DNA of 64,000 nucleotides, taken from positions 32,186 through 96,185 of the forward strand of contig CBEUCJ010000003.1 in NCBI GenBank assembly GCA_965541615.1. The letters run 5' to 3'. The notes under the pieces were generated by a model. That model ran no database searches, was not told the DNA's origin, and saw only the letters and a list, made by a program, of their open reading frames with translations. The position numbers and the translations under genes were made by a program. This document shows, in pieces, positions 3,048-51,997 of this stretch (position 1 is the stretch's first letter; each line of letters starts with the position of its first letter). The DNA comes from an uncultured bacterium. GTDB taxonomy: Bacteria; Omnitrophota; Gorgyraeia; Duberdicusellales; CBEUCJ01.

Positions 3048-3521
3048 ATGAAAAAGTTTAAAATTATAGGCATTTTGTTATCTGTTCTTTTATTTCCAAC
3101 TTTCTTAAATGCCTCTGAAGAAAAACCCCTTCCCTCACAGACAAAAGAAGCTCCTCTTGTAAAAGAAATCTTTTCTCTTGCAGATAAAGCTAAAGAAAAA
3201 TTGAATGAATTAGAAATAGCTATTAAAGAAAAAAAATCTGATAAAAAAATTAAAAAATTAATTAAAGAGTATACATCAGCTGTAAATGAGCTTACACAAA
3301 AAATTCAGAATGTTCAAAATAAAAAAGAAATAAATAAAGCTTTAGAGACTGTAAGAGAAGTTACCAAAAAACACACTCAAAGATTAAAGCAACTTTTAAA
3401 CAAAGCTCCATATGAAGCTAAAAACGCTATAAAACATGCCATCAGAGTATCAAAAAGAGGCAGAATAATTGCTTCAGAAAGATTAAGTAAAAAGCTTTTT
3501 AAGAGAATTAAATCAAAATGA
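3048..3521 (+). CDS. Secreted lysine-rich coiled-coil protein (possibly Skp/OmpH-like periplasmic chaperone)
   Basis: Signal peptide MKKFKIIGILLSVLLFPTFLNA. The rest is K/E-rich predicted helix, about 157 aa, which is Skp-like size and composition. It is the only convincing plus-strand gene in the window. Confidence 0.45.
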   Translation: MKKFKIIGILLSVLLFPTFLNASEEKPLPSQTKEAPLVKEIFSLADKAKEKLNELEIAIKEKKSDKKIKKLIKEYTSAVNELTQKIQNVQNKKEINKALETVREVTKKHTQRLKQLLNKAPYEAKNAIKHAIRVSKRGRIIASERLSKKLFKRIKSK

Positions 3522-4237: not shown

Positions 4238-4825
4238 TTAAGAAATAGAATTAGAATTAAGAATTATATCTATCCTTAAAAAAACCTCAGGATTTTGAAG
4301 AGACTTAGGTTGAGTGGGTTTTTCTCTTAATGTGAAACGTATCCTAACACCATTATTTACACCATTAGAGCTAATTGGTACTAATTGAGAATTAGCTGTG
4401 ACTATTTTTGAATCTATAAGTTGAGTATATCCTACAACAGAGCCTGAAAAAGTTGAAGAATAAGGAATTCTGCTCTTCATCCATAAAGAGTTATTCCAAA
4501 TAATAAAATTTGTTCCTGAATTATCATCAGGTTGATAGTTATTGTTAGCATCTTCTCTTACCCACACACCTATTATCTGTCCGCCTGAGTAGATTGGTTT
4601 TATACCTGTATCTAACTTACTGCCACCCACACTTTCTTTAATTTTCTTTGCGATGTTCTCAACGCCATACATACCTTCATTTATTAAAGCTATTCTTTTT
4701 TCTATAATTTTTAATTGAGTCCTCGCAAACAAATCAAAAGCTACAGGGATAGCTATTACTACTCCTAACAACATAGCTGAAATCATTAACTCTACCAATG
4801 TAAGACTTTTTTTTGTCGTCACCAT
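4238..4825 (-). CDS. Minor pilin / pseudopilin (prepilin-type N-terminus)
   Basis: MVTTKKSLTLVELMISAMLLGVVIA. Class III signal with Leu-Thr-Leu-Val-Glu and a hydrophobic helix. 195 aa. Confidence 0.55.
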   Translation of the reverse strand: MVTTKKSLTLVELMISAMLLGVVIAIPVAFDLFARTQLKIIEKRIALINEGMYGVENIAKKIKESVGGSKLDTGIKPIYSGGQIIGVWVREDANNNYQPDDNSGTNFIIWNNSLWMKSRIPYSSTFSGSVVGYTQLIDSKIVTANSQLVPISSNGVNNGVRIRFTLREKPTQPKSLQNPEVFLRIDIILNSNSIS

Positions 4826-5181
4826 GTCACATTAATAGTTACTTTTCTACAGGTAGTGTTTGTAGAAGAGACTGTATAATTGCGTGAATAATTAATATTA
4901 TCTATAACTACATTACCTGCTGTATGCAAACCCAAAGACAAATCTCCTTTACCTGTACTCCACCAATCTTCTCTTACATCATCATATAAACTTTCCAAAA
5001 CTTCTCTTGCCAACTGAGTAGCCTGTAATCTATGTAAAGACCTTAAATTTAATTTTTTTACACTCAATATTGCACTTACCAAACCCACAAATACACTAGC
5101 TGTTATTAAACTCCCCATAAGGACTTCAGTTAAAGTCAATGATTTTTTATTTTTATTAGGGAAGAGGTTCATTTTTTTCAC
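4819..5181 (-). CDS. Minor pilin / pseudopilin
   Basis: NKKSLTLTEVLMGSLITASVFVGL after a 13-aa leader. 4-nt overlap with the neighbouring genes. Confidence 0.5.
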   Translation of the reverse strand: MKKMNLFPNKNKKSLTLTEVLMGSLITASVFVGLVSAILSVKKLNLRSLHRLQATQLAREVLESLYDDVREDWWSTGKGDLSLGLHTAGNVVIDNINYSRNYTVSSTNTTCRKVTINVTW

Positions 5182-5506
5182 TTAGAATATCTTTTGCTGT
5201 TCCTATATATTTAGCTTTAACTTGCCAAGGGTTCTTTACTACTTGAAAATCCCAATTTTCAGAAGAGATATCCAATTTTAATTTTGCATTACAATCTGAA
5301 GTATTACTACATGTTACATAACTCCCTGTCTCCAACTTGCATATTTTCTCAGCTTGCTTAATCAACTCCATTAGGGTATCAGCTTCTCTTTCAATGGAAT
5401 TTACCACAGCTTTTCTGTAAAGAGGAATAGAAATACTTGCTAAGATAATTATGATGAGTATTACTATCATTAATTCTAGTAAAGTAAATGAAACTTTCCT
5501 CTTCAT
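5156..5506 (-). CDS. Type IV prepilin-like protein
   Basis: MKRKVSFTLLELMIVILIIIILASISIPLY. Canonical N-methylation-site motif with Ser at -1 and Glu at +5. Confidence 0.65.
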   Translation of the reverse strand: MKRKVSFTLLELMIVILIIIILASISIPLYRKAVVNSIEREADTLMELIKQAEKICKLETGSYVTCSNTSDCNAKLKLDISSENWDFQVVKNPWQVKAKYIGTAKDILSEKNEPLP

Positions 5507-5508
5507 TT

Positions 5509-5859
5509 TTAATACACTGTAATTAAACCTTCTTTATTTATTTGAACATGCAAATTCTGATAAGGTGATCTTTGTTTGATAGCAGTTACTGTAAAACTAT
5601 TCACATTTCCACTGAAAGTGTAATTCCAATCTTGGTTAGAGGGATTAGAAATATCTAAATCTTGCCATCCTGTTGGAAATGTTTCCTTATCTTCTATGCA
5701 TCTTAAAATAGAGGCTCTGATTTGATGAAGTACTGCTTTGGCAGAAGCTATTAAGGCTTTCTTTAACTGAGTTCTATATATAGAAAAACCTATTCCCACC
5801 AATATAAGAATTATAATTATGGTTACTATAATTTCTATTAAAGTAAAACTCCTCCTCAA
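5509..5859 (-). CDS. Type IV prepilin-like protein
   Basis: MRRSFTLIEIIVTIIIILILVGI. Confidence 0.7.
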   Translation of the reverse strand: MRRSFTLIEIIVTIIIILILVGIGFSIYRTQLKKALIASAKAVLHQIRASILRCIEDKETFPTGWQDLDISNPSNQDWNYTFSGNVNSFTVTAIKQRSPYQNLHVQINKEGLITVY

Positions 5860-6239
5860 AAGCTCTCTACCTTACTTGGCTTTATTTTCATTTTATAGTT
5901 TCTACCACCAGTCTTAGAAGTAGCTATTATCTCGGCAGCGTCAGGATTGGAGGGGTTATTTACCTTATAAGTAAAATGTTTACTTTCAGAAGGGAGTCTT
6001 ATACCTGTGTTCTTTTCTAAAGCATTAAAGTCTGAAGTAAAAAATCCATTCTCAGCATGATAGATAATTTCAGCTTTTCTTATCAGCTCCATCATAGAAG
6101 TCGCCTCTGCTTTTCGAGCTTTTTCTACAGCCTTTTTATACTGAGTTACTCCAAAACTTGCCAATATAGAAATAGTTACTATTACTGTAATTAATTCTAT
6201 AAGAGTAAAGCTATCTCTCTTACAAATTATTTTCATCAA
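5856..6239 (-). CDS. Type IV prepilin-like protein
   Basis: KRDSFTLIELITVIVTISILAS. Confidence 0.7.
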   Translation of the reverse strand: MMKIICKRDSFTLIELITVIVTISILASFGVTQYKKAVEKARKAEATSMMELIRKAEIIYHAENGFFTSDFNALEKNTGIRLPSESKHFTYKVNNPSNPDAAEIIATSKTGGRNYKMKIKPSKVESF

Positions 6240-6657
6240 TGTCCCAAGTATTATTTATATAATTGTAATCTATGACTCGAGCTCCACCTTTTGCTTTGTT
6301 ATTTACATACAGGTGGGAAGAATTAGAGGTATAATTTGCATAATAGTATCTATTTCCATCGCCATATTTTGCTCTAAGACTAACTTTAATATCGGTCTCA
6401 CCATCACTATCTACATCTAAACTTAAAAGTTGAGTAGAAGAGCCATTAAAGCTTTCATTATAATAATTTCCATTTATTTGATAATAAAGTTGCAAAGCTT
6501 TCCCAATCTCTTTTGCTAAATCCATAGCCATAGATTTTCTTGCTCTTAAAACTACTTTGTAATAAGTAGCTACTCCTATTGAAGCTAATATGGCTATGAT
6601 TAAAATAACTGTGATTACTTCTGCTAACGTAAATCCTTTTTTTCTACAAAAAATCAT
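6220..6657 (-). CDS. Type IV prepilin-like protein
   Basis: RKKGFTLAEVITVILIIAILASIG (Gly at -1). Confidence 0.7.
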   Translation of the reverse strand: MIFCRKKGFTLAEVITVILIIAILASIGVATYYKVVLRARKSMAMDLAKEIGKALQLYYQINGNYYNESFNGSSTQLLSLDVDSDGETDIKVSLRAKYGDGNRYYYANYTSNSSHLYVNNKAKGGARVIDYNYINNTWDIDENNL

Positions 6658-7049
6658 TACTTAGGTATTAAAGGATGTGTTCCTCCTATTTGTCCAGTTT
6701 CATTTATTGTCACAGTTTTATTTTCATATCTTCCTCTTCGTCTCGTAGCAGTTGCAATAAAATTACTCGTACTATTCGTAGTAGTAATATTAAAACTCCA
6801 ATCAGTATCATTAACTTTTGCTACTTCGGGCACTTCTTCACTAAGATCAGACAAACTGGTTGTATAATTATCATAAAGAGAATGATAAATGGCTTCTGCC
6901 TTTCTTATCATATCTAATTTAGAAATAGCTGCTGAAACTTTCGCTCTTTCTTGAACTTTTATAAATTGAGGAATAGCTATAGCTGCTAAAATAGCTATGA
7001 TTATAATTACTATTGTCAATTCTGCTAAAGTAAAACTTTTCTTTATCAT
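6657..7049 (-). CDS. Type IV pilin (candidate major subunit)
   Basis: MIKKSFTLAELTIVIIIIAILAAIAIPQF. C-terminus GQIGGTHPLIPK is paralogous to the next gene. Confidence 0.7.
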   Translation of the reverse strand: MIKKSFTLAELTIVIIIIAILAAIAIPQFIKVQERAKVSAAISKLDMIRKAEAIYHSLYDNYTTSLSDLSEEVPEVAKVNDTDWSFNITTTNSTSNFIATATRRRGRYENKTVTINETGQIGGTHPLIPK

Positions 7050-7116
7050 TCTCTAACCTCCTCTTTTAAAACTATGATATTTTTATTATTCCATTTAAAT
7101 ATACCACAAAAAAACA

Positions 7117-7524
7117 TCATCTTAAAGGATGAGTGCCTCCAAATTTTCCAGTCTCATTTATGCTAATAACATAACCTGCATATTCACTTTCACCTATTCT
7201 TTCAGCCTCTGCTAAAAAACTTTTGTCATCAGCATAAACTATAGTATATTTCCAGTCTTCATCGCCCAAAATTTTTTCATTTAATTCAGGAACCTCTTGT
7301 GCCAATTCTTCAAAATCATCTGTATAGGTATCATATATTGAAAAGTACATACTTTCAGCTTTTTTAATAAGATTTAACTTAACTTTTGCAGAGGTAACTT
7401 TTGTTCTCTCTAAGAATTTCTTATATTGAGGTAAAGCTATACTTATTAATATTACAATAGCTACAATTACAATTACTAATTCAATAAGAGTGAAACTTCT
7501 TTTTTTAAAAGAAAATAAATTCAT
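7117..7524 (-). CDS. Type IV pilin (candidate major subunit, paralog of 6657..7049)
   Basis: KKRSFTLIELVIVIVAIVILISIALPQY. C-terminus GKFGGTHPLR. It is the first pilin gene after the platform gene. Confidence 0.7.
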   Translation of the reverse strand: MNLFSFKKRSFTLIELVIVIVAIVILISIALPQYKKFLERTKVTSAKVKLNLIKKAESMYFSIYDTYTDDFEELAQEVPELNEKILGDEDWKYTIVYADDKSFLAEAERIGESEYAGYVISINETGKFGGTHPLR

Positions 7525-8735
7525 TTACCTCCCAAAGTAGCTAACCTAAATATTGGTAAATACATTGCAATTACTAATGTACCTACAAAACCACCAATAA
7601 TTACTATCATTGCAGGCTCAAATAAAGCAATAAACCTTGCAATCTTTGCTTCTATAATTTTGTAATAATACTCTTGTATCTTTTTAAACATACCTGTAAG
7701 ATTCCCAACTTCCTCTCCTATCCTTATCATTTGAACTACCAGAGGTGGAAAATAATCAAACTTTCCTAAAGGTGCGTTTAAAGACTTCCCCTTCCTTACG
7801 CTTTCTTTTACTTCTTTTATTATTCCCTTCAAAACAGTATTTGTAGCTGACCTTTCGCTAATCTCTAGAGAATATACAATTGGAACTCCAGCCTCTAAAA
7901 GTGTAGCTATCTCTGAAGAAAACCTCTCTAAAGAAACTTCTTTTAAAAACGTCCCCAATAAAGGAATTCTTAATGTAATTCTATCAAAGATTTCTTTCCC
8001 TGTAGGTGTCCGAATAAATTTATAAAAGAAAAATAATATCATAGGGATTAATATCAATAATACAAGCCATGCCTTTCCTACAAAACTACTTACTTTAAAA
8101 AGCAACTTAGTCAAGAAAGGTATCTTTATATTGAATTCTGAAAATATTGTTTTAAATTTAGGTGTAATTATTAAGATAAAAAAAGCTACAGCTCCTATTG
8201 CTATAAAAAAGAGTATTGTAGGATATAAGAGTGCTGTTATTATCTTTCTCCTAAATTCTAATTTTTGTTCTAAATAATAAGCTAATCTTTCTAAAACTAA
8301 AGCTAAATTTCCTGAAGCTTCTCCTATTTCTACTAAACCTACCCATAAATCTGAAAATACTTTTGGAAACTTTCTAAGAGCATCTGAAAAACTGCTACCT
8401 TTCTCTACTTCTATCTTTATCCTTTCTACAATCTGTTGCAATTTAAAACTACCTATCTGAAACTTACAAATCTCTAAAGCTTTTACTAAAGTAACTCCTG
8501 CACTTATCATAGTAGCTAACTGATAAGCAAACATTAATAGATCTGTAGCTCTTACAGTTCGATGAGTAAATCTTTTCTTCTCTTTTTTAAAAGAAAGTGC
8601 AAGGGGTGTTATTTTTATAACTATCAATCCTTCCTCTCCAAGTCTTTTTACTAATTCCTCATAAGAATCTGCTTCTTCTATATTAACTACTTTTCTTCCT
8701 TGCTTATCTCTTGCAAAGTATTTGAAAAGTGGCAT
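7521..8735 (-). CDS. Type II secretion / type IV pilus inner-membrane platform protein (GspF/PilC/MshG family)
   Basis: 404 aa. Two T2SSF-like repeats with 3 TM segments. C-terminal ...IFRLATLGGK region is conserved in GspF/PilC. Confidence 0.85.
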   Translation of the reverse strand: MPLFKYFARDKQGRKVVNIEEADSYEELVKRLGEEGLIVIKITPLALSFKKEKKRFTHRTVRATDLLMFAYQLATMISAGVTLVKALEICKFQIGSFKLQQIVERIKIEVEKGSSFSDALRKFPKVFSDLWVGLVEIGEASGNLALVLERLAYYLEQKLEFRRKIITALLYPTILFFIAIGAVAFFILIITPKFKTIFSEFNIKIPFLTKLLFKVSSFVGKAWLVLLILIPMILFFFYKFIRTPTGKEIFDRITLRIPLLGTFLKEVSLERFSSEIATLLEAGVPIVYSLEISERSATNTVLKGIIKEVKESVRKGKSLNAPLGKFDYFPPLVVQMIRIGEEVGNLTGMFKKIQEYYYKIIEAKIARFIALFEPAMIVIIGGFVGTLVIAMYLPIFRLATLGGK

Positions 8736-8746
8736 AATTTAAAATT

Positions 8747-10450
8747 TTACAAAGCTACTCTTAATACCTCTTCTAAGCTTGTTACTCCCTCTTCTACTTT
8801 TTTTATGCCACTTTCTAATAAAGTTCGCATTCCTGCTTTTTTAGCTTCTTCCCTTATAAGATGGATACTTTCATTCTTAGAAATCAACTCTTTCAATGGC
8901 TCATCTACAAATAAAATCTCTGCAATTAAAGTTCTATCTTTATATCCTATATTTTTACATTCTTTGCATCCTTTAGCTTTATAAATTATATCTTTATTTA
9001 TGCTCACTTTCAATTCTTTAAGAATATCTTTCTCAACTTCATAAGGCTGCTTACAGTTAGGACATAGTTTTCTAATTAATCTTTGAGCGACTATACATGT
9101 TAAAGAAGCACTCACCAAATAAGGAGGTAAACCTATATCTATCAATCTAGTTATAGCTGAAGGTGCATCGTTTGTATGCAAAGTAGAAAGAACCAAATGT
9201 CCTGTTAACGATGCTCTAACACAAATTTCTGCTGTCTCTAAATCTCTAATCTCACCTACCATTATGATATCTGGGTCTTGTCTTAAAAAATGTCTTAAAA
9301 CTCTCGCAAAAGTCAATCCTATTTCAGGTTTTACTTGAACTTGATTTATTCCCTCTAATTTATACTCCACTGGATCTTCTACAGTTAAAATATTTTTTTT
9401 AGGAGATTTTATCTCATTTAAAATTGCATATAAAGTAGTGCTTTTCCCAGAACCAGTAGGACCTGTTAATAAAACTAATCCCCATGGAGAAGTAATCACT
9501 TTTCTCAATATTTTCAACTCTTCACTAGTAAACCCTAAGTAAGCTAAATCCAAAGGTACTCTGGACTTATCTAAGATTCTTATAACTACTTTTTCTCCAT
9601 AAATAGTAGGCACTGTTGAAACTCTCAAATCTATTATCTTATCTCCTTTCTTAACACTAAATCCACCATCTTGAGGTAATCTCTTTTCTGCTATATCCAT
9701 CTTAGAGAGAATCTTAATACGAGAAACTATAGGCAAATGCATGTGTTTAGCAGGTGAAGGAATCTCATACAAAACACCATCTATTCTATATCTTATTCTC
9801 AATCTATCAAAAAAGGGTTCAATATGAATGTCTGATGCCCTCTCTTCTATAGCTTCATTTAAGATTAAATCTACTAATCTTACTACCAAAGCCTCTTCTG
9901 CTTTCTCTACTAACTTATCTACACTTAATTCCTCCTGAGGAGGTGTTTCGGTTTTTGTCACCTCTTCTAAATCTACATCATAAGTAGATTCCACTGCTTT
10001 CTTTAAAAAATCTATTTTTCCATAAAATTCCTCAATAGATTTCAATATGTCTGACTTTGTAGAGACTACCAGATTTATTTGGCAACCAGTTAATTTCTTT
10101 AAATTATCTATTAAATCAAGATCTAAAGGATCTGAAATAGCACATGTAAGAGTATCTCCTTCTTTATTTAATGGTAAAACTAAATTTTTAACCGCTTCTT
10201 CTTTTGGAATTAACTCTTCCAATTTTTGATGAGGGTTGGGTTTTAAAAGGCCTGAAGAATAGGAAAGAAAAGGAAGATGTAGCTGTTCACTTAAAGCTCT
10301 CGCTAAATCCTCTTCTTTAATTATACCTTTTTTTATTAAAATTTCTCCTAATCTACCTCCCTCTTTCTTTTGAATCTCCAAAGCTTCTTTTAAGTTCTTT
10401 TCTGAAATTAACCCTTTTCTAATTAAAATTTCTCCTATTTTATCTTTCAT
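8747..10450 (-). CDS. GspE/PilB/MshE-family assembly ATPase with tandem MshEN c-di-GMP-binding motifs and C-terminal tetracysteine
   Basis: Walker A GPTGSGKST. Asp box and His box (LSTLHTND). CPNC...CKEC zinc motif. N-terminus KIGEILIRKGLISEKNLKEALEIQ-KKEGG-RLGEILIKKGIIKEEDLARALSEQ. Confidence 0.9.
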   Translation of the reverse strand: MKDKIGEILIRKGLISEKNLKEALEIQKKEGGRLGEILIKKGIIKEEDLARALSEQLHLPFLSYSSGLLKPNPHQKLEELIPKEEAVKNLVLPLNKEGDTLTCAISDPLDLDLIDNLKKLTGCQINLVVSTKSDILKSIEEFYGKIDFLKKAVESTYDVDLEEVTKTETPPQEELSVDKLVEKAEEALVVRLVDLILNEAIEERASDIHIEPFFDRLRIRYRIDGVLYEIPSPAKHMHLPIVSRIKILSKMDIAEKRLPQDGGFSVKKGDKIIDLRVSTVPTIYGEKVVIRILDKSRVPLDLAYLGFTSEELKILRKVITSPWGLVLLTGPTGSGKSTTLYAILNEIKSPKKNILTVEDPVEYKLEGINQVQVKPEIGLTFARVLRHFLRQDPDIIMVGEIRDLETAEICVRASLTGHLVLSTLHTNDAPSAITRLIDIGLPPYLVSASLTCIVAQRLIRKLCPNCKQPYEVEKDILKELKVSINKDIIYKAKGCKECKNIGYKDRTLIAEILFVDEPLKELISKNESIHLIREEAKKAGMRTLLESGIKKVEEGVTSLEEVLRVAL

Positions 10451-11928
10451 CTTTCAAATCTTTTTAAAGCTTCTTTTATAGCTCTCTCTTTCTCTCCTAA
10501 AGATTGTTCTCTCTGAAGAGCGAAAGTAAATTTTCTTTGAAATAATTTTGGCCACATTATCTTAGGAGTAATGAAAACTAACAACTCTCTCTCCTTTTTT
10601 TCTTTCTCTTTATGTCTAAATAAACTTCCTATCAGAGGTAAGTCTCCTAATAATGGTAAATGAGTTACTTTTTCCTCTACTTTATTTCTAATCAATCCAC
10701 TTAACACAACTGTCTCACCATCTTTTACTGTTAAAACAGACTTAAAGATCCTTTTTTCTGGATCTTTAAGTGTCTGAACACTTTCTTGAGTAGTTAAAGT
10801 AATAGGGGAAACTACTGCTTCAGAGACTGTGGGTACAATTATCATAGTAATCTCACCTGTCTCCAAATTCACTTGAGGAGTAACTCTTAAAGTAACTCCT
10901 GTCTCTGTTCTCTCAGGCTCTTCACTAACAGCCTCTTCAGTAATAGTAACTTTCTTTCCAATTGCTTCATTTCGAATAATCTTAATTTCTGCTGTCTCAT
11001 TACTTAAAGTTAAAATTCTAGGTCTAGCTAAAAATTTAGTGCTCGCATCTTTCCTAATAAAATCCAACATCATAGAAAAATTTGCAAATGAAACTTCTCC
11101 TAATGTAGGTTTTCCTGCTTCTACTCCTTTCATTAATCTTGAAGGAAAGGGGAAATGGGTGTATCTGGCCGGTCCTTTAAATGTAAAAATAGTCTCTCCA
11201 TAATTAAATCCTAATTTATCTAAAAGTTCTTTAGAAACATCTAAAATTTCAGCCTCTATCATCACCTGAGGAACAGGTGTATCTAACTCTTTTATTAACT
11301 TCTCTATCGCTGGAAATCTGGCTGGTCTATCAGTAATAATCAAACTATTTGTCCGAGGATCTTCTACCAATTTACCTACATCAGATAAAAGACCTGTAAT
11401 TGCTTCCTTTAAAGCTACATATCTACTCTCTTCACCACCTTCACTACTTTCTCCTCCCTCACTTTCTTCGCTTTCGCCTTCTTCCTCTTCACCTAACTGA
11501 GAGTTTATCTCTGCATCTAATTTGGAATTTGAAACTCTAGTATACTTTAATCTGTAAACTTTAGTAATAGTCTCTACTTCTGGTTTTCCTAATTCTTTTA
11601 CAATGAAAATATTGCTTTCAGGAAGAAACTCATAAGTAAGGTTATTAGCTTTCAATAAAGAATCAAAAGCTTCTTTTAAAGTGACATTTTCAAAATAGCA
11701 AGTAATTTTTCTTTTTCTAATATTCTCTGGACATATAAAGTTAAGTCCCACCTGTTGAGATAATGCTTTTAGAACATCTATTAAATCAGCACCCTCAAAA
11801 TCCATTGAAACTCTCTTTGAAGGATCTGTTAATAAATACTCTGCATAATATTTGTTGTTAATACCTGCATAACCAAAGTTAAAGTTTAAGAATAAGCTTC
11901 CTATAATAATTATTAAAAAACATCTCAT
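10447..11928 (-). CDS. Secretin (PilQ/GspD/MshL family)
   Basis: N-terminal STN-like DFEGADLIDVLKALSQQVGLNFI. C-terminal secretin core ...LLVFITPKI. Signal peptide present. Acidic low-complexity insert EEEEGESEESEGGESSEGGEE. Confidence 0.85.
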   Translation of the reverse strand: MRCFLIIIIGSLFLNFNFGYAGINNKYYAEYLLTDPSKRVSMDFEGADLIDVLKALSQQVGLNFICPENIRKRKITCYFENVTLKEAFDSLLKANNLTYEFLPESNIFIVKELGKPEVETITKVYRLKYTRVSNSKLDAEINSQLGEEEEGESEESEGGESSEGGEESRYVALKEAITGLLSDVGKLVEDPRTNSLIITDRPARFPAIEKLIKELDTPVPQVMIEAEILDVSKELLDKLGFNYGETIFTFKGPARYTHFPFPSRLMKGVEAGKPTLGEVSFANFSMMLDFIRKDASTKFLARPRILTLSNETAEIKIIRNEAIGKKVTITEEAVSEEPERTETGVTLRVTPQVNLETGEITMIIVPTVSEAVVSPITLTTQESVQTLKDPEKRIFKSVLTVKDGETVVLSGLIRNKVEEKVTHLPLLGDLPLIGSLFRHKEKEKKERELLVFITPKIMWPKLFQRKFTFALQREQSLGEKERAIKEALKRFER

Positions 11929-12287
11929 TTTTCAGCCTCCTTCTTAACAGGAAATATATAGATTCTTCTCTTATACATAATACTTACACCTTCTTTATTT
12001 ATATCTATTATTTTACCTCCTTGTATTTCATCTCCAATCTTATACAGTTGACCATCTATAATTGCACAAGGGAGCGTAGTATTCCAAACTACACCTTCCA
12101 CTTCTATTTCAAAATCTACTTTTTCTGCTCCATATTCTTCCTCCCCTTTGCTTTCTTCTTCATTTAAACTCGGCTCTATCTTTTTAGGAATACAATCTAC
12201 AAAAGGATCTATAACCTTTTTATCTTGTTTAGCATACCCTGTCAAAACAAACATTACTATAAAACTACCTAACCAAAAACATTTCAT
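11925..12287 (-). CDS. PilP/MshK-like small periplasmic pilus-assembly protein
   Basis: Signal peptide. C-terminal beta-domain pattern AIIDGQLYKIGDEIQGGKIIDINKEGVSIMY resembles the PilP C-domain. Sits between the PilO-like gene and the secretin. Confidence 0.4.
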   Translation of the reverse strand: MKCFWLGSFIVMFVLTGYAKQDKKVIDPFVDCIPKKIEPSLNEEESKGEEEYGAEKVDFEIEVEGVVWNTTLPCAIIDGQLYKIGDEIQGGKIIDINKEGVSIMYKRRIYIFPVKKEAEK

Positions 12288-12805
12288 CTTTTGAGTAGTT
12301 CCTTTTTAAATCTAATGGTGGACAATTTTAAATTCACATCTAAAAATGGTCCTTCTGTCTTACTAAGTAATAATTGATCTACATTTATATAAAAATTATA
12401 ATTTTCCAACGTTTCTAAAAATTTAATTAACTCAAAAAAACTAGCTTTTAAATTTACAATCAAACCAATCTTCTCAAAAAATTCATCTTTAGGAAAAGTA
12501 CCCCCTGGAGTAATAAAGGAAGTTCTAATTTGAGGATATTTTTTTAGAATTGAAATGATCATCTCAAGCATATTCTGTGCATCTTGAATAGAAAAATAAG
12601 AGCCTTGAAGATTTAATTCTCTTCTAATTTTCTTTAGCTCTTTTAACAAAAATTTTTTTTCTTCATTTTTTTCTATTTCATCCTCAATCTCGCTTATTCT
12701 CTTTTCAAAAAATACATTTATAAATTTTGTTATAGGATAAACACATCCCAAAATAAAAATTGAAATGATTATATCCTTTCTTTTAAAAATATACTTCATC
12801 TGCAT
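12284..12805 (-). CDS. PilO/MshJ-like bitopic membrane protein
   Basis: Single N-terminal TM, coiled-coil, then a small domain. Lies between the PilM-N fusion and the PilP-like gene, as in T4P operons. Confidence 0.4.
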   Translation of the reverse strand: MQMKYIFKRKDIIISIFILGCVYPITKFINVFFEKRISEIEDEIEKNEEKKFLLKELKKIRRELNLQGSYFSIQDAQNMLEMIISILKKYPQIRTSFITPGGTFPKDEFFEKIGLIVNLKASFFELIKFLETLENYNFYINVDQLLLSKTEGPFLDVNLKLSTIRFKKELLKR

Positions 12806-14250
12806 TCTATTTTAAAGCTAGTAACTCTATAACCTTTATATACTCCTTCTGAAATCTCTTTAAGAATTATCTTATCAAAATAATTAAAAAAATTTTTTCT
12901 TATATTACTTACAAATTTTTTTATTGAATCCATCCGCTCAGATTCCTCTTTAGCATAAGAAAATCCTTCCAAAAAAAGAACACTTCCTTTTTCTTCCTGC
13001 CATACTAAAGATAACCTCTCAATCCAAACACCTTGAGGAAGATTTTTAGAAAGTGCTTTTAAAATCGTGGAAAAAAATTTTTTAGAAGACTTAAAGTATT
13101 CAAATTGAGCTAATATCTTTTTAAACTTTACTTTATCTGACCTTAATTCCTCTATGCTCTTCAAAGCTCTTATTCCCTCTCTTAAAAGACGTCTCTTTAC
13201 TATCTTTAGCTGATTCTTTTTTTCTTTAAATTTGTTAAACTTACCTATAAAGTTAAAACCTGCAATTAAGAAAAAAATAAATGAAGATAAAATAATATAC
13301 TCTTTTCTAAAAGGAATTTCTTTGGATACTTCTACTTTCTTTTCTTCTTTTATCGAAACATTAAAGGAAATTAAAGTTCTAAGAGGGGAAGGTAAAGTAA
13401 CACTATAAGATTTTAATTCTTCTATACTAAATCTCTCACTAAAAATTTTTTCTTCACCTATAAAGTATAAAGGTAAATCAAATTCTTTATTCAACTCTTC
13501 AAAGTAATTTTTATACTTTTCTTTACCAATAAATAATAAACTTTGAACTACTTCTCCTTTATAACGTCTTTGATAGTACTCTAAAGACAATCTTAATTCC
13601 TCAGTAAATCTTTTTAGATCTTCTTTTCTTGAAATCTTAACATCTCTAAAGATACAAGGAAAATGATTACTCAACATTAAAAAACTTGCCTCTTCATCAT
13701 CTATAACTATTACTCCATAAGTCTTTAATCTCTGCATCATCTTTTCTTTCCTAAGATAAAGCAGTCTCCAAAAAGAAACAATAGCTGGTTCTATCTTCAT
13801 CAAATTTAAGTCGAACTGTTTAATCCCTTCTTTAATCTTAGAAAAATCTTTTTTATTCACTCCTACAAAGCACACTTCTGATGTTTTTTCTTTTTTAAAG
13901 ACTCTAAATTTAAAATCCCATAGTAAATCTTCCAATTTGAAAGGTAATCTTCTCTCAGCTTCAAAAGGGAGTGCTTGGATTACTTCCTTTTTAGAAAGAA
14001 AAGGGAATTCAAAGAATCTTATAAGTATAAATTGAGAAGAGAGAGAAAGATATAGTAAAACCTTCTCTCTAACTCTAAATTCTTCTAAAGCTCTCTGAAT
14101 GCAAATATTAAGAAAAGCTGAAAAATCAAGATATTCTTTTGGATTATATTTAAAATTTAATGTATCTTCGATAACATCATTTCTTACTTTACATAAATAG
14201 ACATTGTTATTTGCACTTATATACAAACCTATTTTAATACCTTTTTTCAT
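12796..14250 (-). CDS. PilM-PilN fusion (MshI-like) pilus assembly protein
   Basis: 484 aa. Actin-like N-domain (KIGLYISANNNVYLCKV start). Internal TM (YIILSSFIFFLIAGFNFI) followed by a PilN-like C-part. First gene of the cluster. Confidence 0.55.
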   Translation of the reverse strand: MKKGIKIGLYISANNNVYLCKVRNDVIEDTLNFKYNPKEYLDFSAFLNICIQRALEEFRVREKVLLYLSLSSQFILIRFFEFPFLSKKEVIQALPFEAERRLPFKLEDLLWDFKFRVFKKEKTSEVCFVGVNKKDFSKIKEGIKQFDLNLMKIEPAIVSFWRLLYLRKEKMMQRLKTYGVIVIDDEEASFLMLSNHFPCIFRDVKISRKEDLKRFTEELRLSLEYYQRRYKGEVVQSLLFIGKEKYKNYFEELNKEFDLPLYFIGEEKIFSERFSIEELKSYSVTLPSPLRTLISFNVSIKEEKKVEVSKEIPFRKEYIILSSFIFFLIAGFNFIGKFNKFKEKKNQLKIVKRRLLREGIRALKSIEELRSDKVKFKKILAQFEYFKSSKKFFSTILKALSKNLPQGVWIERLSLVWQEEKGSVLFLEGFSYAKEESERMDSIKKFVSNIRKNFFNYFDKIILKEISEGVYKGYRVTSFKIECR

Positions 14251-26603: not shown

Positions 26604-27398
26604 TTATAAATATTCCTTTATAGCATTCAGAGTAGTAGTCAAACAAGAAAACAAAGCTAAAGCACTAGTCTTAGGGTTGTATTTTGAAGGTAGATTTTGA
26701 GAAATACTTTCAAATCTTCCAATATCTGAGTCTATTAAGATATGGTGGATATTTTTATCTATAAAAGGTGAACATATAACTTTTACTCTTATCTTTTCAA
26801 ATTCTCCTGAAACTATCCCTAAAGTAGCTGCTACATTTATATTTTGAGGAAATTTTTTAATGCTTTCGATCAAACTCCCTTCAAAAAGCAGGGTCTCTTC
26901 TTTTAAAGAATAAACATCTATATTTTTTTCTTTTAAGAAAGGGGCGCCTTCTAAACTCTTTGGAGATTTATAAGTTCTCAATTCTATAGAGTTAACTTTG
27001 GAATACTTTAAAGCTTTAAAAATATCTAAACCAAAGATCGCTCCTTCAGGGATATAAATTTTGATCTGTTTTTGTAAAGTCTTAAATAGTTCATAATTAA
27101 GAATCAAACCTCCAACGCTCATAATAACTACATTCTTTTTATACTCTTTGCAAAATTTTAAGACTTCTTCTACAACATTTACATTAGCACATTCTATAAT
27201 TAATTGTGAAGATTTGATTAAATCTTCTAAATTCGCAGTCAAATCTGAATCTTTATCCCATATTTTTTTAAGATTTTGTGCTTTCTCAAAATTAATATCA
27301 TAAAAATAAACCTTATTAACAATATCTTTATCTAAATTTTCTATTAAGAACCTACCGATATTCCCGCATCCAATGATTCCTAACTTAATTTTTCTCAT
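26604..27398 (-). CDS. nadX: L-aspartate dehydrogenase
   Basis: IGCGNIGRFL Rossmann. PEGAIFGLD, FPQNINVAATLGI, KNIHHIL and NPKTSALALFS closely mirror the Thermotoga NadX motifs as I recall them. Confidence 0.7.
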   Translation of the reverse strand: MRKIKLGIIGCGNIGRFLIENLDKDIVNKVYFYDINFEKAQNLKKIWDKDSDLTANLEDLIKSSQLIIECANVNVVEEVLKFCKEYKKNVVIMSVGGLILNYELFKTLQKQIKIYIPEGAIFGLDIFKALKYSKVNSIELRTYKSPKSLEGAPFLKEKNIDVYSLKEETLLFEGSLIESIKKFPQNINVAATLGIVSGEFEKIRVKVICSPFIDKNIHHILIDSDIGRFESISQNLPSKYNPKTSALALFSCLTTTLNAIKEYL

Positions 27399-28270
27399 AA
27401 TTTAAAAATTATTTTATCTTTTCTAACATGAACTAACATGTTATCTATCAATCTTGTAGTCCCTATAAAAACAGCTAAAGCTACTAAAACTTTTCCTTCT
27501 ATTTTTTTTATTTTTTTTAAATTGTTAGCATCTGTTATTTCAATGTACTGAATTTTAGCTAAATCAAAATTTTTTTCTATAAAACTTTTCATCTTTCTCT
27601 TTATTTTAAAAACATCTCTTTCTCCTTTTAAAATGAGTTCTTTAGCTAATAAAAGGCTTTTGTACAAACATACTGCTTGTTTTCTCTCTTCTGAAGATAA
27701 ATAAGTATTTCTTGAACTTAAAGCTAAGCCATCTTTATCTCTTACAATGGGTAAAACTTTTATTTTAGTATTCATATTTAAATCTTTTACCATCTTCTTA
27801 ATGATCACTGCTTGCTGGAAATCCTTTTGACCAAAATAACTTATATCAGGCTCTGTTATATTAAAAAGTTTTGTAACAACAGTACATACACCTCTAAAAT
27901 GCCCTGGTCTAAATCTTCCACATAAAACTTTTGATAATTCTTCTACATCTACAAAAACTAATTGTTTTTCAGGGTACATTTCTTTTATTGAAGGCAAAAA
28001 CACCAGATCCACATTCTCTTTTCTACAAAGTCTCAAATCTTTTTTAACAGGTCTTGGGTATTTATCGAAATCTTCTGAAGGACCAAATTGCAAAGGATTT
28101 ACAAAGATACTCACAACTACATAATCACATTCTTTCCTGCATTTTCTTATTAAAGACAAATGACCTTCATGCAAAGCTCCCATAGTGGGAACAAAACCTA
28201 TTAATTTTCCTCTCCTTTTTTCTTCTCTAATTATCTCTTTTACTCTTTTAATATTTTTTACTACTTTCAT
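27395..28270 (-). CDS. panC: Pantoate--beta-alanine ligase
   Basis: PTMGALHEGHLSLIRK HIGH-type motif. 291 aa. Confidence 0.9.
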   Translation of the reverse strand: MKVVKNIKRVKEIIREEKRRGKLIGFVPTMGALHEGHLSLIRKCRKECDYVVVSIFVNPLQFGPSEDFDKYPRPVKKDLRLCRKENVDLVFLPSIKEMYPEKQLVFVDVEELSKVLCGRFRPGHFRGVCTVVTKLFNITEPDISYFGQKDFQQAVIIKKMVKDLNMNTKIKVLPIVRDKDGLALSSRNTYLSSEERKQAVCLYKSLLLAKELILKGERDVFKIKRKMKSFIEKNFDLAKIQYIEITDANNLKKIKKIEGKVLVALAVFIGTTRLIDNMLVHVRKDKIIFKL

Positions 28271-28689
28271 ACTAAAACTTTATGAGGAGCTATTTCTCTT
28301 AATGGCTTTAGAACGAATTCTCTTTTAAAAACTTGAGGGTGAGGAATCTTTAAATCTTGAGTATCTATTTTTAAATCTCCATAAAACAAAATGTCTATAT
28401 CTATGGTTCTAGGTCCCCATCTTATCTCTTTTTCTCTATTCCTTCCCAAAAGTCTTTCTATTTCTTGGAGTTTTTTTAATAACTCATGAGGGGATAAATC
28501 TGTAGAAATTTCTACCACACAGTTTAAGAAATAGTCTTGAGGTTTAAAACCTACAGGTTCTGTCTCATATATACTAGAAATTTTTTTAACTTGTGTTAAA
28601 GGGAGTTTTTTTATCATTTCAATCGCTTTTTCTAAATAAGATAATCTATTTCCTAAATTTGAACCCAATCCCAGATAACACACTTTCAT
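28267..28689 (-). CDS. folK: 2-amino-4-hydroxy-6-hydroxymethyldihydropteridine pyrophosphokinase
   Basis: GLGSNLGNR...ETEPVG...RWGPRTIDIDIL. Confidence 0.85.
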   Translation of the reverse strand: MKVCYLGLGSNLGNRLSYLEKAIEMIKKLPLTQVKKISSIYETEPVGFKPQDYFLNCVVEISTDLSPHELLKKLQEIERLLGRNREKEIRWGPRTIDIDILFYGDLKIDTQDLKIPHPQVFKREFVLKPLREIAPHKVLV

Positions 28690-28690
28690 T

Positions 28691-29851
28691 TTAAAGTTTT
28701 TTTCTCAATCTTTCTATAGCTTCTTCTAATATTTCTTCTTTTTTGGTTAAAGAAAATCTTATATAGCCTTCTCCATACATCCCAAATCCTATCCCAGGGG
28801 TTGCTAAAATGTTACATTCTTCTATTAAAAATTCTGCAAATTTAAAAGAATCCATATTTTTAGGGGTCTTTGCCCATACATAAAAGGTAGCTTTTGGCCA
28901 GAAAAATTCTAAACCTATTTCTTTTAAACCTTTACAAAATAAATCTCTTCTCTTTCTGTAGATTTCTCTTATTCTTTCAATAAATCTGAGTTCATTTTCT
29001 AAAAGATAAGCTCCTCCTATCTGAATAGGATTAAAGACTCCTGAATCTATATGAGACTTTACTTTTAAAAGAGCAGAGATCAAGTCTCTATTCCCACAAG
29101 CCCAACCTAATCTGAAACCTGTCATACAAAAAGTCTTTGAAAAAGAATGAAATTCTATACAAACTTGTTTTGCTCCTTCTATTTGCAAAAGGCTTAAAGG
29201 CTTTTCTTCAAAATAAAGTTCTGAATAAGCACAATCATTCACAATCACAAATCCAAAGGCTTTAGCTACTTCTATAACTTTTTTTAAGAAACTCTCAGAA
29301 GCTAAAGCTGTTGTGGGATTATTTGGATAATTTAAGAATAAAAGTTTTGCTTTTTCTAAAATATCTTTTGGAACTCTATCTAACTGGGGTAAAAATTCAT
29401 TCTCTATAGTTAAAGGTAAGTCTATGTAATCAGCTTCACAAAAGATAACACTGCTCCTATAAGGAGGATAACAAGGATTAGGGATTAAAGTTAGATCTCC
29501 TCTGTTTAAAATACTTAAAGGAAAATGCACTATTCCTTCTTTTGAACCTATTAATACCAAAATCTCAGATTCTGGATCTAAATCTACATTGAACCTCTTT
29601 TTCATATAAATAGCTATCTTTTCTCTTAAAATTCTTAATCCTCTTTCTAAAGAGTAAGTTTGATTCTCTTTTTTTTGAGATTCAGTGCAAATTATTTTTA
29701 TTAAACTATCTGGACATTTGATATCAGGATCACCTACCCCTAAGTCTATGAGATCTTTGCCCTCTTCTAAAATCCTTTTCTTCTTTTTATCTAATTCTAC
29801 AAATAAATATTTAGGTAATTTTTTAAATCTATCTGCAAACTCGAAGTTCAT
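28691..29851 (-). CDS. dapL: Class I/II aminotransferase, likely LL-diaminopimelate aminotransferase
   Basis: N-terminal LPKYLFVEL...IDLGVGDPDIKCP resembles the DapL N-terminus. NNPT. SFSKTFCMTGFRLGW PLP-Lys region. Sits in a dapB/A/F-lysA cluster with no dapD/dapE. Confidence 0.55.
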   Translation of the reverse strand: MNFEFADRFKKLPKYLFVELDKKKKRILEEGKDLIDLGVGDPDIKCPDSLIKIICTESQKKENQTYSLERGLRILREKIAIYMKKRFNVDLDPESEILVLIGSKEGIVHFPLSILNRGDLTLIPNPCYPPYRSSVIFCEADYIDLPLTIENEFLPQLDRVPKDILEKAKLLFLNYPNNPTTALASESFLKKVIEVAKAFGFVIVNDCAYSELYFEEKPLSLLQIEGAKQVCIEFHSFSKTFCMTGFRLGWACGNRDLISALLKVKSHIDSGVFNPIQIGGAYLLENELRFIERIREIYRKRRDLFCKGLKEIGLEFFWPKATFYVWAKTPKNMDSFKFAEFLIEECNILATPGIGFGMYGEGYIRFSLTKKEEILEEAIERLRKKL

Positions 29852-29881
29852 AGGTTTCTTAAGCTCCCTTTTTAGAAGATT

Positions 29882-30619
29882 TTAAAATTCATATAAATCT
29901 TCCATTGAATATAATCCTTTCTCTTTATTAGCTATAAATTTACAAGCTAATATTGCGCCTTTTGCAAAAGTCTTTCTACTGATAGCCCTATGAACGAACT
30001 CTATTCTCTCTTCATTACCACAAAAGATTATATAGTGATCACCTACAACTTCACCTATCCTTAAAGAATGGACTCTTAAAGGTTTTTTATAATTTTCTTC
30101 TAAAATATTTATGAACTTTTTTGCTGTTCCAGAAGGTGCATCTTTTTTAAATCTATGATGAATATCTATTACCTCTACATCATAAACATCTTTCAAAATA
30201 GAAGAAACTCTTCTTAAAAGTTTAAATAAAAAATTCACTCCAAAACTCATATTAGGTGAAAGTAAAATAGCAGTCTCTTTTGAAGCTTCTTTAATTTTTT
30301 CTATTTCAGAATCTGTAAATCCAGTTGTACCTATTACCATCTTTTTTTTGAATTTTTTACAAAACTCTAACTTTTCTAAACAAGCCTTTCTTTCAGAAAA
30401 ATCTATTAAAACATCACAAGTTAAAATCTTTTGTGGATCAGATTCTAAACGTAAACCGATTTCCTTTCCAACCAAAATCTTTCCAACATCTTCTCCTAAA
30501 AGAGGGTGGTCTTTTTTTTCTAAAGCTAAGACCAATTCTAAATCTTTATCTTCTAAAACTAACTGTGAAATTAATCTTCCCATTCTGCCCAAAGCTCCAC
30601 TCACAGCTGTTTTTATCAT
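29882..30619 (-). CDS. dapB: 4-hydroxy-tetrahydrodipicolinate reductase
   Basis: VSGALGRMGR. EVIDIHHRFKKDAPSGTA. Confidence 0.9.
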   Translation of the reverse strand: MIKTAVSGALGRMGRLISQLVLEDKDLELVLALEKKDHPLLGEDVGKILVGKEIGLRLESDPQKILTCDVLIDFSERKACLEKLEFCKKFKKKMVIGTTGFTDSEIEKIKEASKETAILLSPNMSFGVNFLFKLLRRVSSILKDVYDVEVIDIHHRFKKDAPSGTAKKFINILEENYKKPLRVHSLRIGEVVGDHYIIFCGNEERIEFVHRAISRKTFAKGAILACKFIANKEKGLYSMEDLYEF

Positions 30620-30642
30620 AAATTTACCTCCTTTTTAACTTT

Positions 30643-31524
30643 TTAAGAAATCAAATCGTATTTTTTAAGAATCTTTTTAAGCTTTTCCAAATTTTCTTTT
30701 TTCATACTACATAGAGGTAATCTCAATTCAGGACTGATCATACCCATTAATCCTAAGGCTGTTTTTACAGGTATAGGATTTGTTTCTATAAAGAGTGCTT
30801 TTATTAATGGGTATAAATAAAAATGCAGGTCTTGAGCTTTTTTAACATCACCTGCTAAAAAACTTTCAACTAAATCATGAGTGATTTTAGGCAAAATATT
30901 TGCCACTACACTTATTACCCCTTTTCCACCAATAGAAAGAATCGGTAAAGTTAAAGCATCATCACCTGATAAGAGAGTAATTTTTTTATTTGTTAAACTC
31001 AAAATCTTTGTCATTTGGTCTAAATTTCCAGAAGCTTCTTTAATAGCTATTATATTTTTACATTTAGATACTAACTTTGCTACGGTTTCAGGTAAAAGAT
31101 TTATACCTGTCCTTGAAGGTATGTTATAAAGAACAAGAGGGATATCTACAGATTCTGCTATCTTTAAAAAATGCTCATACAAACCTTCTTGAGTAGGTTT
31201 ATTATAATAAGGACAGATTAACAAACAAGCTGTTGCTCCTGCTTTTTTAGCAAACTTTGTCAATCTTAAAGCTTCTTCTGTAGAATTTGAACCCGTCCCT
31301 GCTATCACAGGAATTCTTCCTCTTACTTCTTGTACACAAATATCTATTATTTTTTCATGCTCTTGGTAATTTAAAGTAGCTGACTCTCCTGTAGTTCCAC
31401 AAGGGACTATCGCATCTGTATTATTTTTTAAATGGAATTTAATTAATTTTTTAAAACTTTTAATATCTAACTTCCCATTTTTGAAAGGAGTAACTATTGC
31501 TACCATTGAACCTTTCAATTCCAT
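30643..31524 (-). CDS. dapA: 4-hydroxy-tetrahydrodipicolinate synthase
   Basis: GTTGESATL. Active-site Lys region IAIKEASG. Confidence 0.9.
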   Translation of the reverse strand: MELKGSMVAIVTPFKNGKLDIKSFKKLIKFHLKNNTDAIVPCGTTGESATLNYQEHEKIIDICVQEVRGRIPVIAGTGSNSTEEALRLTKFAKKAGATACLLICPYYNKPTQEGLYEHFLKIAESVDIPLVLYNIPSRTGINLLPETVAKLVSKCKNIIAIKEASGNLDQMTKILSLTNKKITLLSGDDALTLPILSIGGKGVISVVANILPKITHDLVESFLAGDVKKAQDLHFYLYPLIKALFIETNPIPVKTALGLMGMISPELRLPLCSMKKENLEKLKKILKKYDLIS

Positions 31525-31551
31525 AGATTTTTCACCTCCTTTTAAAAATCT

Positions 31552-42753: not shown

Positions 42754-42771
42754 AATCTTCCTCCTCTAATA

Positions 42772-42972
42772 CTACTTTTTATGACTTAAATCTAAAAGAC
42801 TTAACGCAATACTAAAAAGCAAACACATTACTGAAAATCTCAAAATTCCAGTTGTAGTAATCCCCCAAAAGATTTTCTTTATCTCCAAAAGTCTTAATAC
42901 TACTCCTACCATAAAACTTACAAAAGCTATAGCTATAAACAAATCATCTCCTAATCTGTACATATTCTTCAT
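42772..42972 (-). CDS. Small two-TM membrane protein (paralog B)
   Basis: 66 aa. Ends ...LLFSIALSLLDLSHKK, about 45% identical to 43371..43574. SD-like ggaggtg 6 nt upstream. Confidence 0.4.
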   Translation of the reverse strand: MKNMYRLGDDLFIAIAFVSFMVGVVLRLLEIKKIFWGITTTGILRFSVMCLLFSIALSLLDLSHKK

Positions 42973-43003
42973 CTTTTACACCTCCTTTTTATTACAACAA
43001 ATC

Positions 43004-43366: not shown

Positions 43367-43370
43367 TCAT

Positions 43371-45619: not shown

Positions 45620-45620
45620 A

Positions 45621-50458: not shown

Positions 50459-50507
50459 AATTATTTTATCTTAATCTTTTTTTAAATTCAATTTTCACAA
50501 AAGCTAT

Positions 50508-51962: not shown

Positions 51963-51997
51963 ATTACTTATTATACTAAAAATCTGTTTTTTTAAAA

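Follow-up and report, generated by a model that had tools for sequence, protein, structure and literature searches.

A tandem MshEN c-di-GMP motif in one of two paralogous type IV filament ATPases, and PilZ genes beside the other, in an uncultivated member of the Omnitrophota

Do two paralogous assembly ATPases encoded in one genome respond to cyclic di-GMP (c-di-GMP) in the same way? The question is raised by a 64,000-nucleotide stretch of DNA from an uncultured bacterium (GTDB lineage Bacteria; Omnitrophota; Gorgyraeia; Duberdicusellales; CBEUCJ01), positions 32,186 to 96,185 of the forward strand of contig CBEUCJ010000003.1 (GenBank assembly GCA_965541615.1), here called the window. Two gene clusters for type IV filaments (pilus or secretion), paralogous to each other, lie in the window, each with one PilB/GspE-type ATPase. 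A first-pass annotation had predicted from the letters that c-di-GMP directly gates the motor of cluster 1 (ATPase 1) and not that of cluster 2 (ATPase 2). From the sequences, the likeliest case is that ATPase 1 alone binds c-di-GMP directly, because ATPase 2 is missing the residues that, when mutated in MshE, abolish binding. On balance, we favor a wider reading, in which c-di-GMP would control motor 1 in cis and system 2 in trans, via PilZ domains. The clusters, ATPases (lengths in amino acids [aa]), and N-terminal elements are located as follows.

4238..14250, minus strand: cluster 1 (Pfam and NCBIfam; synteny with loci L007 and L008)
8747..10450, minus strand: ATPase 1, PilB/GspE-type assembly ATPase of 567 aa, with an N-terminal MshEN domain at residues 1-145
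10283..10441, minus strand: tandem MshEN c-di-GMP motif, ATPase 1 residues 4-56 (24 aa, 5-aa spacer, 24 aa)
41378..58239, minus strand: cluster 2 (Pfam and NCBIfam; gene order shared with loci L001, L004, L005, and L093)
46464..48266, minus strand: ATPase 2, PilB/GspE-type, 600 aa, 46% identical to ATPase 1 (BLASTP)
48093..48251, minus strand: motif-less equivalent 53 residues, ATPase 2 residues 6-58, with the register kept and Gly3, Gly10, and Gln24 replaced

The MshEN consensus comprises two 24-residue copies of (R/K/L)LGxx(L/V/I)(L/V/I)xxG(L/V/I)(L/V/I)xxxxLxxxLxxQ (PMC5013675, PMC11731258). The backbone amides of Gly3 and the next residue bind guanine, leucines stack on the bases, and Gln24 binds the ribose-phosphate (PMC5013675). 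The translated open reading frame (ORF) of ATPase 1 starts with MKDKIGEILIRKGLISEKNLKEALEIQKKEGGRLGEILIKKGIIKEEDLARALSEQ; it holds motif 1, KIGEILIRKGLISEKNLKEALEIQ, and motif 2, RLGEILIKKGIIKEEDLARALSEQ, joined by the 5-aa spacer KKEGG. Two differences from the strict RLG consensus are found, both in motif 1 (K replaces R at position 1, and I replaces L at position 2), and against the extended (R/K/L)LG consensus, ATPase 1 deviates solely by the Ile for Leu at position 2. The polar ligand-contact residues of both motifs, Gly3 and Gln24, are in place as G6, Q27, G35, and Q56. By position scoring, ATPase 1 matches 22/22 key positions, equal to Vibrio cholerae MshE. The NCBIfam model NF053729 ("c-di-GMP_motif") scores 72.9 bits (E value, 1.3e-20; curated cut-off, 38), with residues 4-56 aligned without gaps to model positions 1-53 of 53; as a sequence match, this is homology and not chance. 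The claim of two 24-mers exactly 5 residues apart is borne out by these results. The letters of the 53-mer had been given exactly, while the attached coordinates, 10280..10438, encode residues 5-57 (IGEIL...SEQL), an offset of one residue from 4-56. A regular expression for the motif, run on six frames of the whole window, matched the two ATPase 1 24-mers alone.

ATPase 1 aligns without gaps to the N-termini of both MshE, whose motif sequence is RLGDLLVEEGIVSEAQLEQALNAQ-KNTGR-RLGDTLISLGFLSETQLLNFLAQQ (PDB 5HTL), and Pseudomonas aeruginosa PA14_29490, PLGQRLLERGLVSGQELERALDLQ-RRLGG-RLGGILVRSGAISENTLMQVLAEQ, which was compared over the 80 residues printed in the PMC5013675 supplement. K4 of ATPase 1 lies opposite R9 of MshE. 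Motif 1 of PA14_29490 begins PLG and is followed by a 5-residue spacer, as in ATPase 1. Lysine at motif 1 position 1 is present in PilF GSPII-B (dissociation constant, 6 nM), D. geothermalis PilB2, and C. thermophilum PilB, and the K167R change in PilF GSPII-B makes binding 25-fold weaker (PMC11731258). The motif 1 lysine of ATPase 1 is no defect and corresponds to the variant of high-affinity binders.

The register of ATPase 2 was fixed alike by BLASTP against ATPase 1, HMMER against 5HTL, and NF053729: without gaps, motif 1 corresponds to residues 6-29, the spacer KKLKR to residues 30-34, and motif 2 to residues 35-58. The N-terminal helices of the two ATPases align without gaps, ATPase 1 residue n standing opposite ATPase 2 residue n+2, and E6 of ATPase 2 lies opposite R9 of MshE. 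The alignment check proposed for the motif spacing thus came out in its favor, as the 5-residue spacer and the gap-free register relative to MshE (5HTL) are kept in both ATPases. ATPase 2 retains the hydrophobic positions, with 14/22 key positions and 0/4 Gly3 and Gln24 residues, which agrees with the earlier description of a hydrophobic skeleton only; the segment named for it, 48164..48254, covers motif 1 and the spacer and leaves out motif 2, the full extent being 48093..48251. The substitutions are R8 and E37 at Gly3, N15 and H44 at Gly10, T29 and K58 at Gln24, and E6 and P35 at position 1. NF053729 scores 34.5 bits, under the cut-off of 38. Substitutions of G11 and G40 in MshE abolish c-di-GMP binding, and in XpsE of Xanthomonas campestris, binding was lost through G11V and G40L, among other changes (PMC5013675).

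Models of residues 1-155 of each ATPase were built with AlphaFold2 (AF2), with a mean predicted local distance difference test score (pLDDT) of 90.6 for ATPase 1 and 86.9 for ATPase 2, and were compared with the PDB using Foldseek. The predicted topology is identical in both N-domains, four helices followed by an alpha/beta subdomain. The best PDB match of the ATPase 1 model is 5HTL, c-di-GMP-bound MshE, with a template modeling (TM) score of 0.73-0.82, and that of the ATPase 2 model is 9G1W, the nonbinding PilF GSPII-A; the ATPase 2 model gives a TM score of 0.56-0.67 against 5HTL. ATPase 1 would most likely bind one c-di-GMP at an intact MshEN_N four-helix bundle, like MshE and PilF GSPII-B, each 24-mer clamping one guanine, with the Gly3 amides to the base, leucines stacking, and Gln24 to the ribose-phosphate. 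The Pfam "MshEN" model (PF05157) matches ATPase 1 at residues 73-145, the MshEN_C part, with 64.3 bits, the c-di-GMP site lying outside the match; in ATPase 2, the match (65.5 bits) starts at residue 59 and likewise excludes the motif region. That this model misses the c-di-GMP site is stated in the PMC5013675 supplement. Because the model misses the site, and with similar scores in ATPases of opposite motif status, a Pfam "MshEN" match is uninformative on c-di-GMP binding, and NF053729 or the Gly3/Gln24 residues are to be preferred in annotation over Pfam MshEN alone.

Control of system 2 in trans is suggested by the gene content of cluster 2. Its first part encodes minor pilins, a PilZ protein, PilM/N, PilO, a 157-aa protein, the secretin, a coiled-coil protein, a TPR protein, and ATPase 2. 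These are followed by an AAA_22 (ExeA-like) ATPase, PilC, a histidine kinase, a small membrane protein, a PilZ protein, a second small membrane protein, a response regulator, and a fusion of an MshEN-like with a PilZ domain (MshEN-PilZ), whose gene is the operon tail. PilM/N is encoded at 53094..54851 and PilC at 44354..45619. The PilZ and two-component genes are the following.

54862..55209, minus strand: stand-alone PilZ protein, 115 aa (Pfam PilZ, 55.6 bits; RKFLR, NISRNG), directly upstream of pilM/N
43558..44364, minus strand: histidine kinase (Pfam HisKA, HATPase_c)
43004..43366, minus strand: stand-alone PilZ protein, 120 aa (Pfam PilZ, 48.1 bits; RKFER, DISSQG), between the histidine kinase and the response regulator
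42196..42753, minus strand: response regulator, a receiver (REC) domain plus linker (Pfam Response_reg)
41378..42199, minus strand: MshEN-PilZ fusion, 273 aa, with motif-less MshEN-like residues 1-145 and PilZ residues 166-266 (RESER, DISQSG)

All three PilZ domains score above the Pfam gathering score of 22.5, with RxxxR and [D/N]xSxxG intact in each. In the fusion, Pfam scores are 61.5 bits for MshEN and 37.1 bits for PilZ; its MshEN half is motif-less, with Gly3 replaced by E in motif 1 and by F in motif 2, and its NF053729 score is 33.6 bits, under the cut-off. The 115-aa PilZ protein has an ortholog at the equivalent place in L001, and the 120-aa protein has orthologs in L001, L004, L005, L092, and L093. 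Because three canonical PilZ domains are encoded in cluster 2, system 2 would probably receive c-di-GMP in trans, through PilZ adaptors on the motor N-domain or on its PilM docking site. The analogy is with Xanthomonas citri, whose PilB is motif-less and binds, through its N-domain, a PilZ protein linking it to the c-di-GMP receptor FimX (PMC8389850, PMC11656802). Direct gating of one motor, as first predicted, therefore stands on sequence and predicted fold, and the implied control of one system alone by c-di-GMP does not, given the three PilZ domains.

c-di-GMP might instead act on cluster 2 with PilZ targets other than the motor ATPase, such as the platform (PilM/N, PilC), the kinase/regulator pair, or an unrelated process. 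Of the three PilZ genes, one immediately precedes pilM/N, the remaining two flank the genes for the histidine kinase and response regulator, and a subdomain of the MshEN_C (ND1) type binds GspL/PilM elsewhere (PMC8389850). The X. citri PilZ protein contacts the PilB N-domain mainly via ND1 (MshEN_C), and another ND1 face was proposed to bind PilM (PMC8389850). The sole structural precedent is PilZ on the PilB N-domain, and we regard a target away from the motor as unlikely.

A MshEN(-PilZ) gene stands after the family-B T2SSF gene (family B being that of ATPase 2, described below) in all seven related loci examined (L001, L002/L003, L004, L005, L006, L092, and L093). The tail of kinase, PilZ, regulator, and MshEN-PilZ is repeated in the family-B loci L001 (90% identity), L004 (73%), and L005 (64%) and also occurs in L092 and L093 (36-37% identity), which were reached via distant MshEN-PilZ homologs. 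L002/L003 and L006 are without the kinase, regulator, and stand-alone PilZ genes and have a MshEN protein of ~280 aa directly after T2SSF. A sensitivity-limited search gave an MshEN-PilZ family of 48 sequence clusters, mostly of ~265-285 aa, and a metagenome contig scan gave 3 loci. In the alignment of 47 homologs and the window protein, RxxxR is present in 48/48 sequences and [D/N]xSxxG in 43/48. Source annotations of the homologs go no further than "PilZ domain-containing protein" or "hypothetical," and wherever an organism is named, it is an Omnitrophota member. The fusion was not found in literature searches or in the architecture lists of the Wang et al. supplement, and the family, which has no name, is a candidate regulator.

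By analogy, and as speculation, the MshEN half of the fusion might, under PilZ control, occupy the site on PilM where the motor docks or else associate with the motor N-domain. MshEN-PilZ might then be a c-di-GMP-controlled mimic of the N-terminal docking domain of the motor, one that, once its PilZ domain has bound c-di-GMP, competes with or recruits ATPase 2 at the PilM platform; we offer this tentatively and consider it doubtful. If it is true, both filament systems would answer one messenger by different mechanisms, possibly in opposite directions, and cis and trans control by c-di-GMP would have arisen from duplicated MshEN modules in a phylum unstudied for c-di-GMP signaling.

The conservation of both N-termini was followed in two families, family A (ATPase 1) and family B (ATPase 2), each aligned as 121 sequences, namely 120 Omnitrophota orthologs and the window protein. 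In family A, retention is nearly complete at the ligand-contact positions (G6 in 118, Q27 in 121, R33 in 109, G35 in 121, and Q56 in 121), and position 1 is K in 69 and R in 49 sequences. Family B has almost no Gly3, carries E or D at position 1, and retains residues of its own: K31 in 112, L32 in 111, K33 in 105, R34 in 111, P35 in 115, L36 in 119, E37 in 109, and Y52 in 116. On these alignments, the split between the families is old within the phylum. Since its own residues are conserved across 120 orthologs, the N-terminus of ATPase 2 is a conserved alternative and not a product of decay; the word "degenerate," first applied to it, gives way to a distinct variant under strong conservation. 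The N-domain of ATPase 2 would lack c-di-GMP binding of the MshE type and present a different, conserved surface that probably serves as a protein-protein interface. Family B proteins are consistently ~600-612 aa long versus ~565-575 aa in family A, and the C-terminus of ATPase 2 extends into a Lys/Glu-rich tail of ~50 residues (residues ~548-600; 46464..46625, minus strand) that is absent from ATPase 1.

These counts bear on the reading of the first-pass annotation, in which c-di-GMP gates the cluster 1 motor alone, cluster 2 is c-di-GMP independent, and the ATPase 2 N-terminus is a decayed relic. Such a relic would be expected to score under the NF053729 cut-off, as ATPase 2 does, with every Gly3 and Gln24 lost; the high conservation of that N-terminus in the orthologs and the three canonical PilZ domains within cluster 2, which recur in orthologous loci, argue against it and make it quite unlikely.

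Several points weigh against our reading of cis and trans control. PilF GSPII-A, with the consensus restored, was inactive until its N-cap and inter-subdomain contacts were removed (PMC12002112); a consensus motif is thus necessary and not sufficient for binding. The Foldseek E values of binding and nonbinding templates are near each other, and the structural matches therefore lend weak support. The 64-kb window has no GGDEF, EAL, or HD-GYP gene, as judged by a motif scan and by Pfam on ORFs of at least 90 aa, and no c-di-GMP riboswitch (Rfam). The [D/N]xSxxG of the fusion is degraded in 2/7 related loci (L002/L003 and L006), RESER or REAER being kept, and the proposed link from PilZ to the motor is founded solely on gene adjacency and analogy. 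The insufficiency of the consensus and the lack of a cyclase gene in the window, together with the weak binding of cyclic GMP-AMP (cGAMP) by MshEN (PMC5013675), would fit a motif that ATPase 1 keeps in order to fold or to bind a different ligand, such as 3'3'-cGAMP, with no physiological c-di-GMP switch, for which PilF GSPII-A is the precedent. However, family B keeps the predicted fold without Gly3 or Gln24, so these residues are unnecessary for folding, and they are nearly invariant in family A all the same. Only 3 residues lie ahead of the ATPase 1 motif, which would probably leave no room for a long N-terminal cap; helix 1 begins at residue 5 in the predicted apo model. The ATPase 1 model is also nearest to ligand-bound MshE, and retention of the motif for folding or another ligand appears improbable. 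That ATPase 2 binds c-di-GMP or another nucleotide at a noncanonical site in its conserved KKLKRPLE loop is highly improbable, for although the loop is basic and conserved beyond the matching family A spacer, and proline at position 1 of motif II does not prevent binding by PilF GSPII-C (PMC11731258), large side chains occupy both Gly3 positions of ATPase 2, such changes abolish binding in MshE, and a site of this kind is without precedent.

The frequency of the motif was gauged in 90 PilB/GspE-like ORFs; this background set, drawn from 80 GTDB loci, was chosen for its similarity to ATPase 2 and not at random. At least 20/22 key positions are matched in 27/90 of these and all four Gly3/Gln24 residues are present in 28/90; judged from these sequences, the tandem c-di-GMP motif itself is common. 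The background contig scan with ATPase 2 was dominated by the generic pattern QDPDVIMV and returned PilB/GspE relatives from many phyla, all with 53% identity or less and none a family B ortholog. A strict regular expression for the tandem motif matched 66/120 family A proteins and 4/90 generic ATPases; because it undercounts, position scoring was used instead. More than 10,000 proteins carry an MshEN domain (Wang et al. 2016, PMC5013675).

Both ATPases contain a Walker A motif, GPTGSGK(S/T)T, and a tetracysteine motif, CPxC...CxxC, and the Pfam T2SSE model scores 465 bits in ATPase 1 and 475 bits in ATPase 2. The PilB equivalog TIGR02538 scores 628.8 and 596.4, respectively (cut-off, 675.65), and the GspE equivalog TIGR02533 scores 605 and 595.7 (cut-off, 630.25). 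As neither ATPase reaches the PilB or GspE cut-off, the label "pilus motor" is provisional, and either system may be a pilus or a secretion system. No PilT-like retraction ATPase is encoded in the window.

Cluster 1 encodes a PilM/N fusion, a PilO/GspM-like protein, a 120-aa protein, the secretin, ATPase 1, PilC/GspF, and about seven pilin-like proteins, with genes for a large TPR protein, ExbB, ExbD, and UvrA upstream. Pfam annotation, which covered every window ORF of at least 90 aa, found no PilZ gene in cluster 1, and the family A loci L007 and L008, which share its synteny from UvrA to the pilins, are PilZ free. Cluster 1 was considered as a mannose-sensitive hemagglutinin (MSHA) pilus on account of its MshE-like motif, and this was rejected because msh-type neighbors are absent: its secretin scores 120.5 bits on the MshL model (cut-off, 250.2), and there is no AAA_22 gene and no MshM/MshN-like gene. 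It is ATPase 2, without the motif, whose gene is flanked by the ExeA-like (AAA_22) and TPR genes that characterize msh operons.

In cluster 2, the response regulator (42196..42753) aligns with the NCBIfam model for NosR-family REC-HD-GYP c-di-GMP phosphodiesterases over positions 1-156 only, out of 422; it consists of the receiver domain and linker, the catalytic domain being missing. The 120-aa PilZ gene is flanked by genes for paralogous predicted membrane proteins of 66-67 aa (42772..42972 and 43371..43574, both minus strand), which have the motifs LGxDLF and SLSLLDLSxK in common and no family match; L001 has such a pair, and L004, L005, and L093 have one copy each. The best NCBIfam matches of the AAA_22 ATPase (45621..46463, minus strand) and the TPR protein (48259..48900, minus strand) are the PEP-CTERM/XrtA-system models TIGR03015 (202 bits; cut-off, 324) and TIGR02917 (under its cut-off), respectively, which may hint at a link of the cluster 2 filament system to exopolysaccharide or exosortase-type machinery. 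A promoter/terminator scan of cluster 2 was uninformative, as it gave fewer promoter-like sites than shuffled sequence. In distant relatives, a third filament cluster stands directly after the family B cluster (L002, 14248..20782; L005, 17301..21836; L006, 14309..21818); it encodes a DUF8575 protein, a secretin split in two genes, and a 556-aa ATPase with 20/22 motif positions at its N-terminus and is absent from the window. A gene for a ComFB-CheR methyltransferase fusion adjoins the family B cluster in L002/L003 (1..96) and L006 (1..322); ComFB is a recently described family of cyclic dinucleotide (c-di-NMP) receptors.

The window has a GC content of 29%. Nearly all of its genes lie on the minus strand, many with 4-bp start/stop overlaps, and 3048..3521 is the only plus-strand ORF of at least 90 aa that overlaps no longer minus-strand ORF. 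Lysine (dap) and arginine biosynthesis genes lie between the two filament clusters (26604..41259, minus strand). Upstream of cluster 2 are a trehalose synthesis block (58751..63949, minus strand), with a TreT-like GT1 glycosyltransferase, DUF5752, trehalose phosphatase, and GT20 genes, and a tRNA gene at 58672..58743.

Literature searches returned nothing on c-di-GMP and pili or on the regulation of pilus or secretion machines in Omnitrophota. For these uncultivated bacteria, the prediction is that one motor senses c-di-GMP itself and the other through PilZ adaptors.

Comparison with known systems places most of this arrangement on familiar ground. In V. cholerae MshE, as in ATPase 1, the 24+5+24 architecture lies N-terminally in a PilB/GspE-type ATPase; motif 1 of MshE, however, starts RLG with 8 residues ahead, whereas that of ATPase 1 starts KIG with 3 residues ahead, and cluster 1 is not of the MSHA type. 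Myxococcus xanthus PilB and Clostridium perfringens PilB2 are type IV pilus extension ATPases that bind c-di-GMP via an N-terminal MshEN motif (PMC11656802), the former with 19/22 key positions and 4/4 Gly3 and Gln24 residues by position scoring; they belong to other phyla than Omnitrophota. In Thermus thermophilus PilF, motif I of GSPII-B starts with lysine, as in ATPase 1, and GSPII-A, the best structural match of ATPase 2, is likewise an MshEN fold with binding lost. PilF differs in holding binding and nonbinding domains in tandem in one protein, while here they are in two paralogous ATPases of two clusters, and GSPII-A is much nearer the consensus (18/22 versus 14/22 in ATPase 2).

For ATPase 2, the N-domain of XpsE (PDB 2D27/2D28) is a further parallel, an MshEN-fold domain of a GspE-type ATPase with Gly3 of both motifs and Gln24 substituted, but XpsE belongs to a classical type II secretion system, and ATPase 2 lies in a PilM/N/O-secretin cluster with PilZ genes. 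The motif-less N-domain of X. citri PilB gets its signal via a PilZ protein, as proposed for ATPase 2, and P. aeruginosa has a directly binding ATPase, PA14_29490, beside PilB (PMC8389850, PMC5013675). Unlike the cluster 2 PilZ domains, which keep the canonical motifs, the PilZ proteins of Xanthomonas and Pseudomonas have no c-di-GMP binding of their own and need FimX; cluster 2 has no FimX-like gene, and one of its PilZ domains is fused to an MshEN-like domain. Since motif-bearing and motif-less paralogs and PilZ control of a motif-less PilB have already been documented, the pattern itself, known from Vibrio, Pseudomonas, Xanthomonas, Thermus, and Myxococcus, is not new, and the conserved MshEN-PilZ accessory protein is the sole fresh element.

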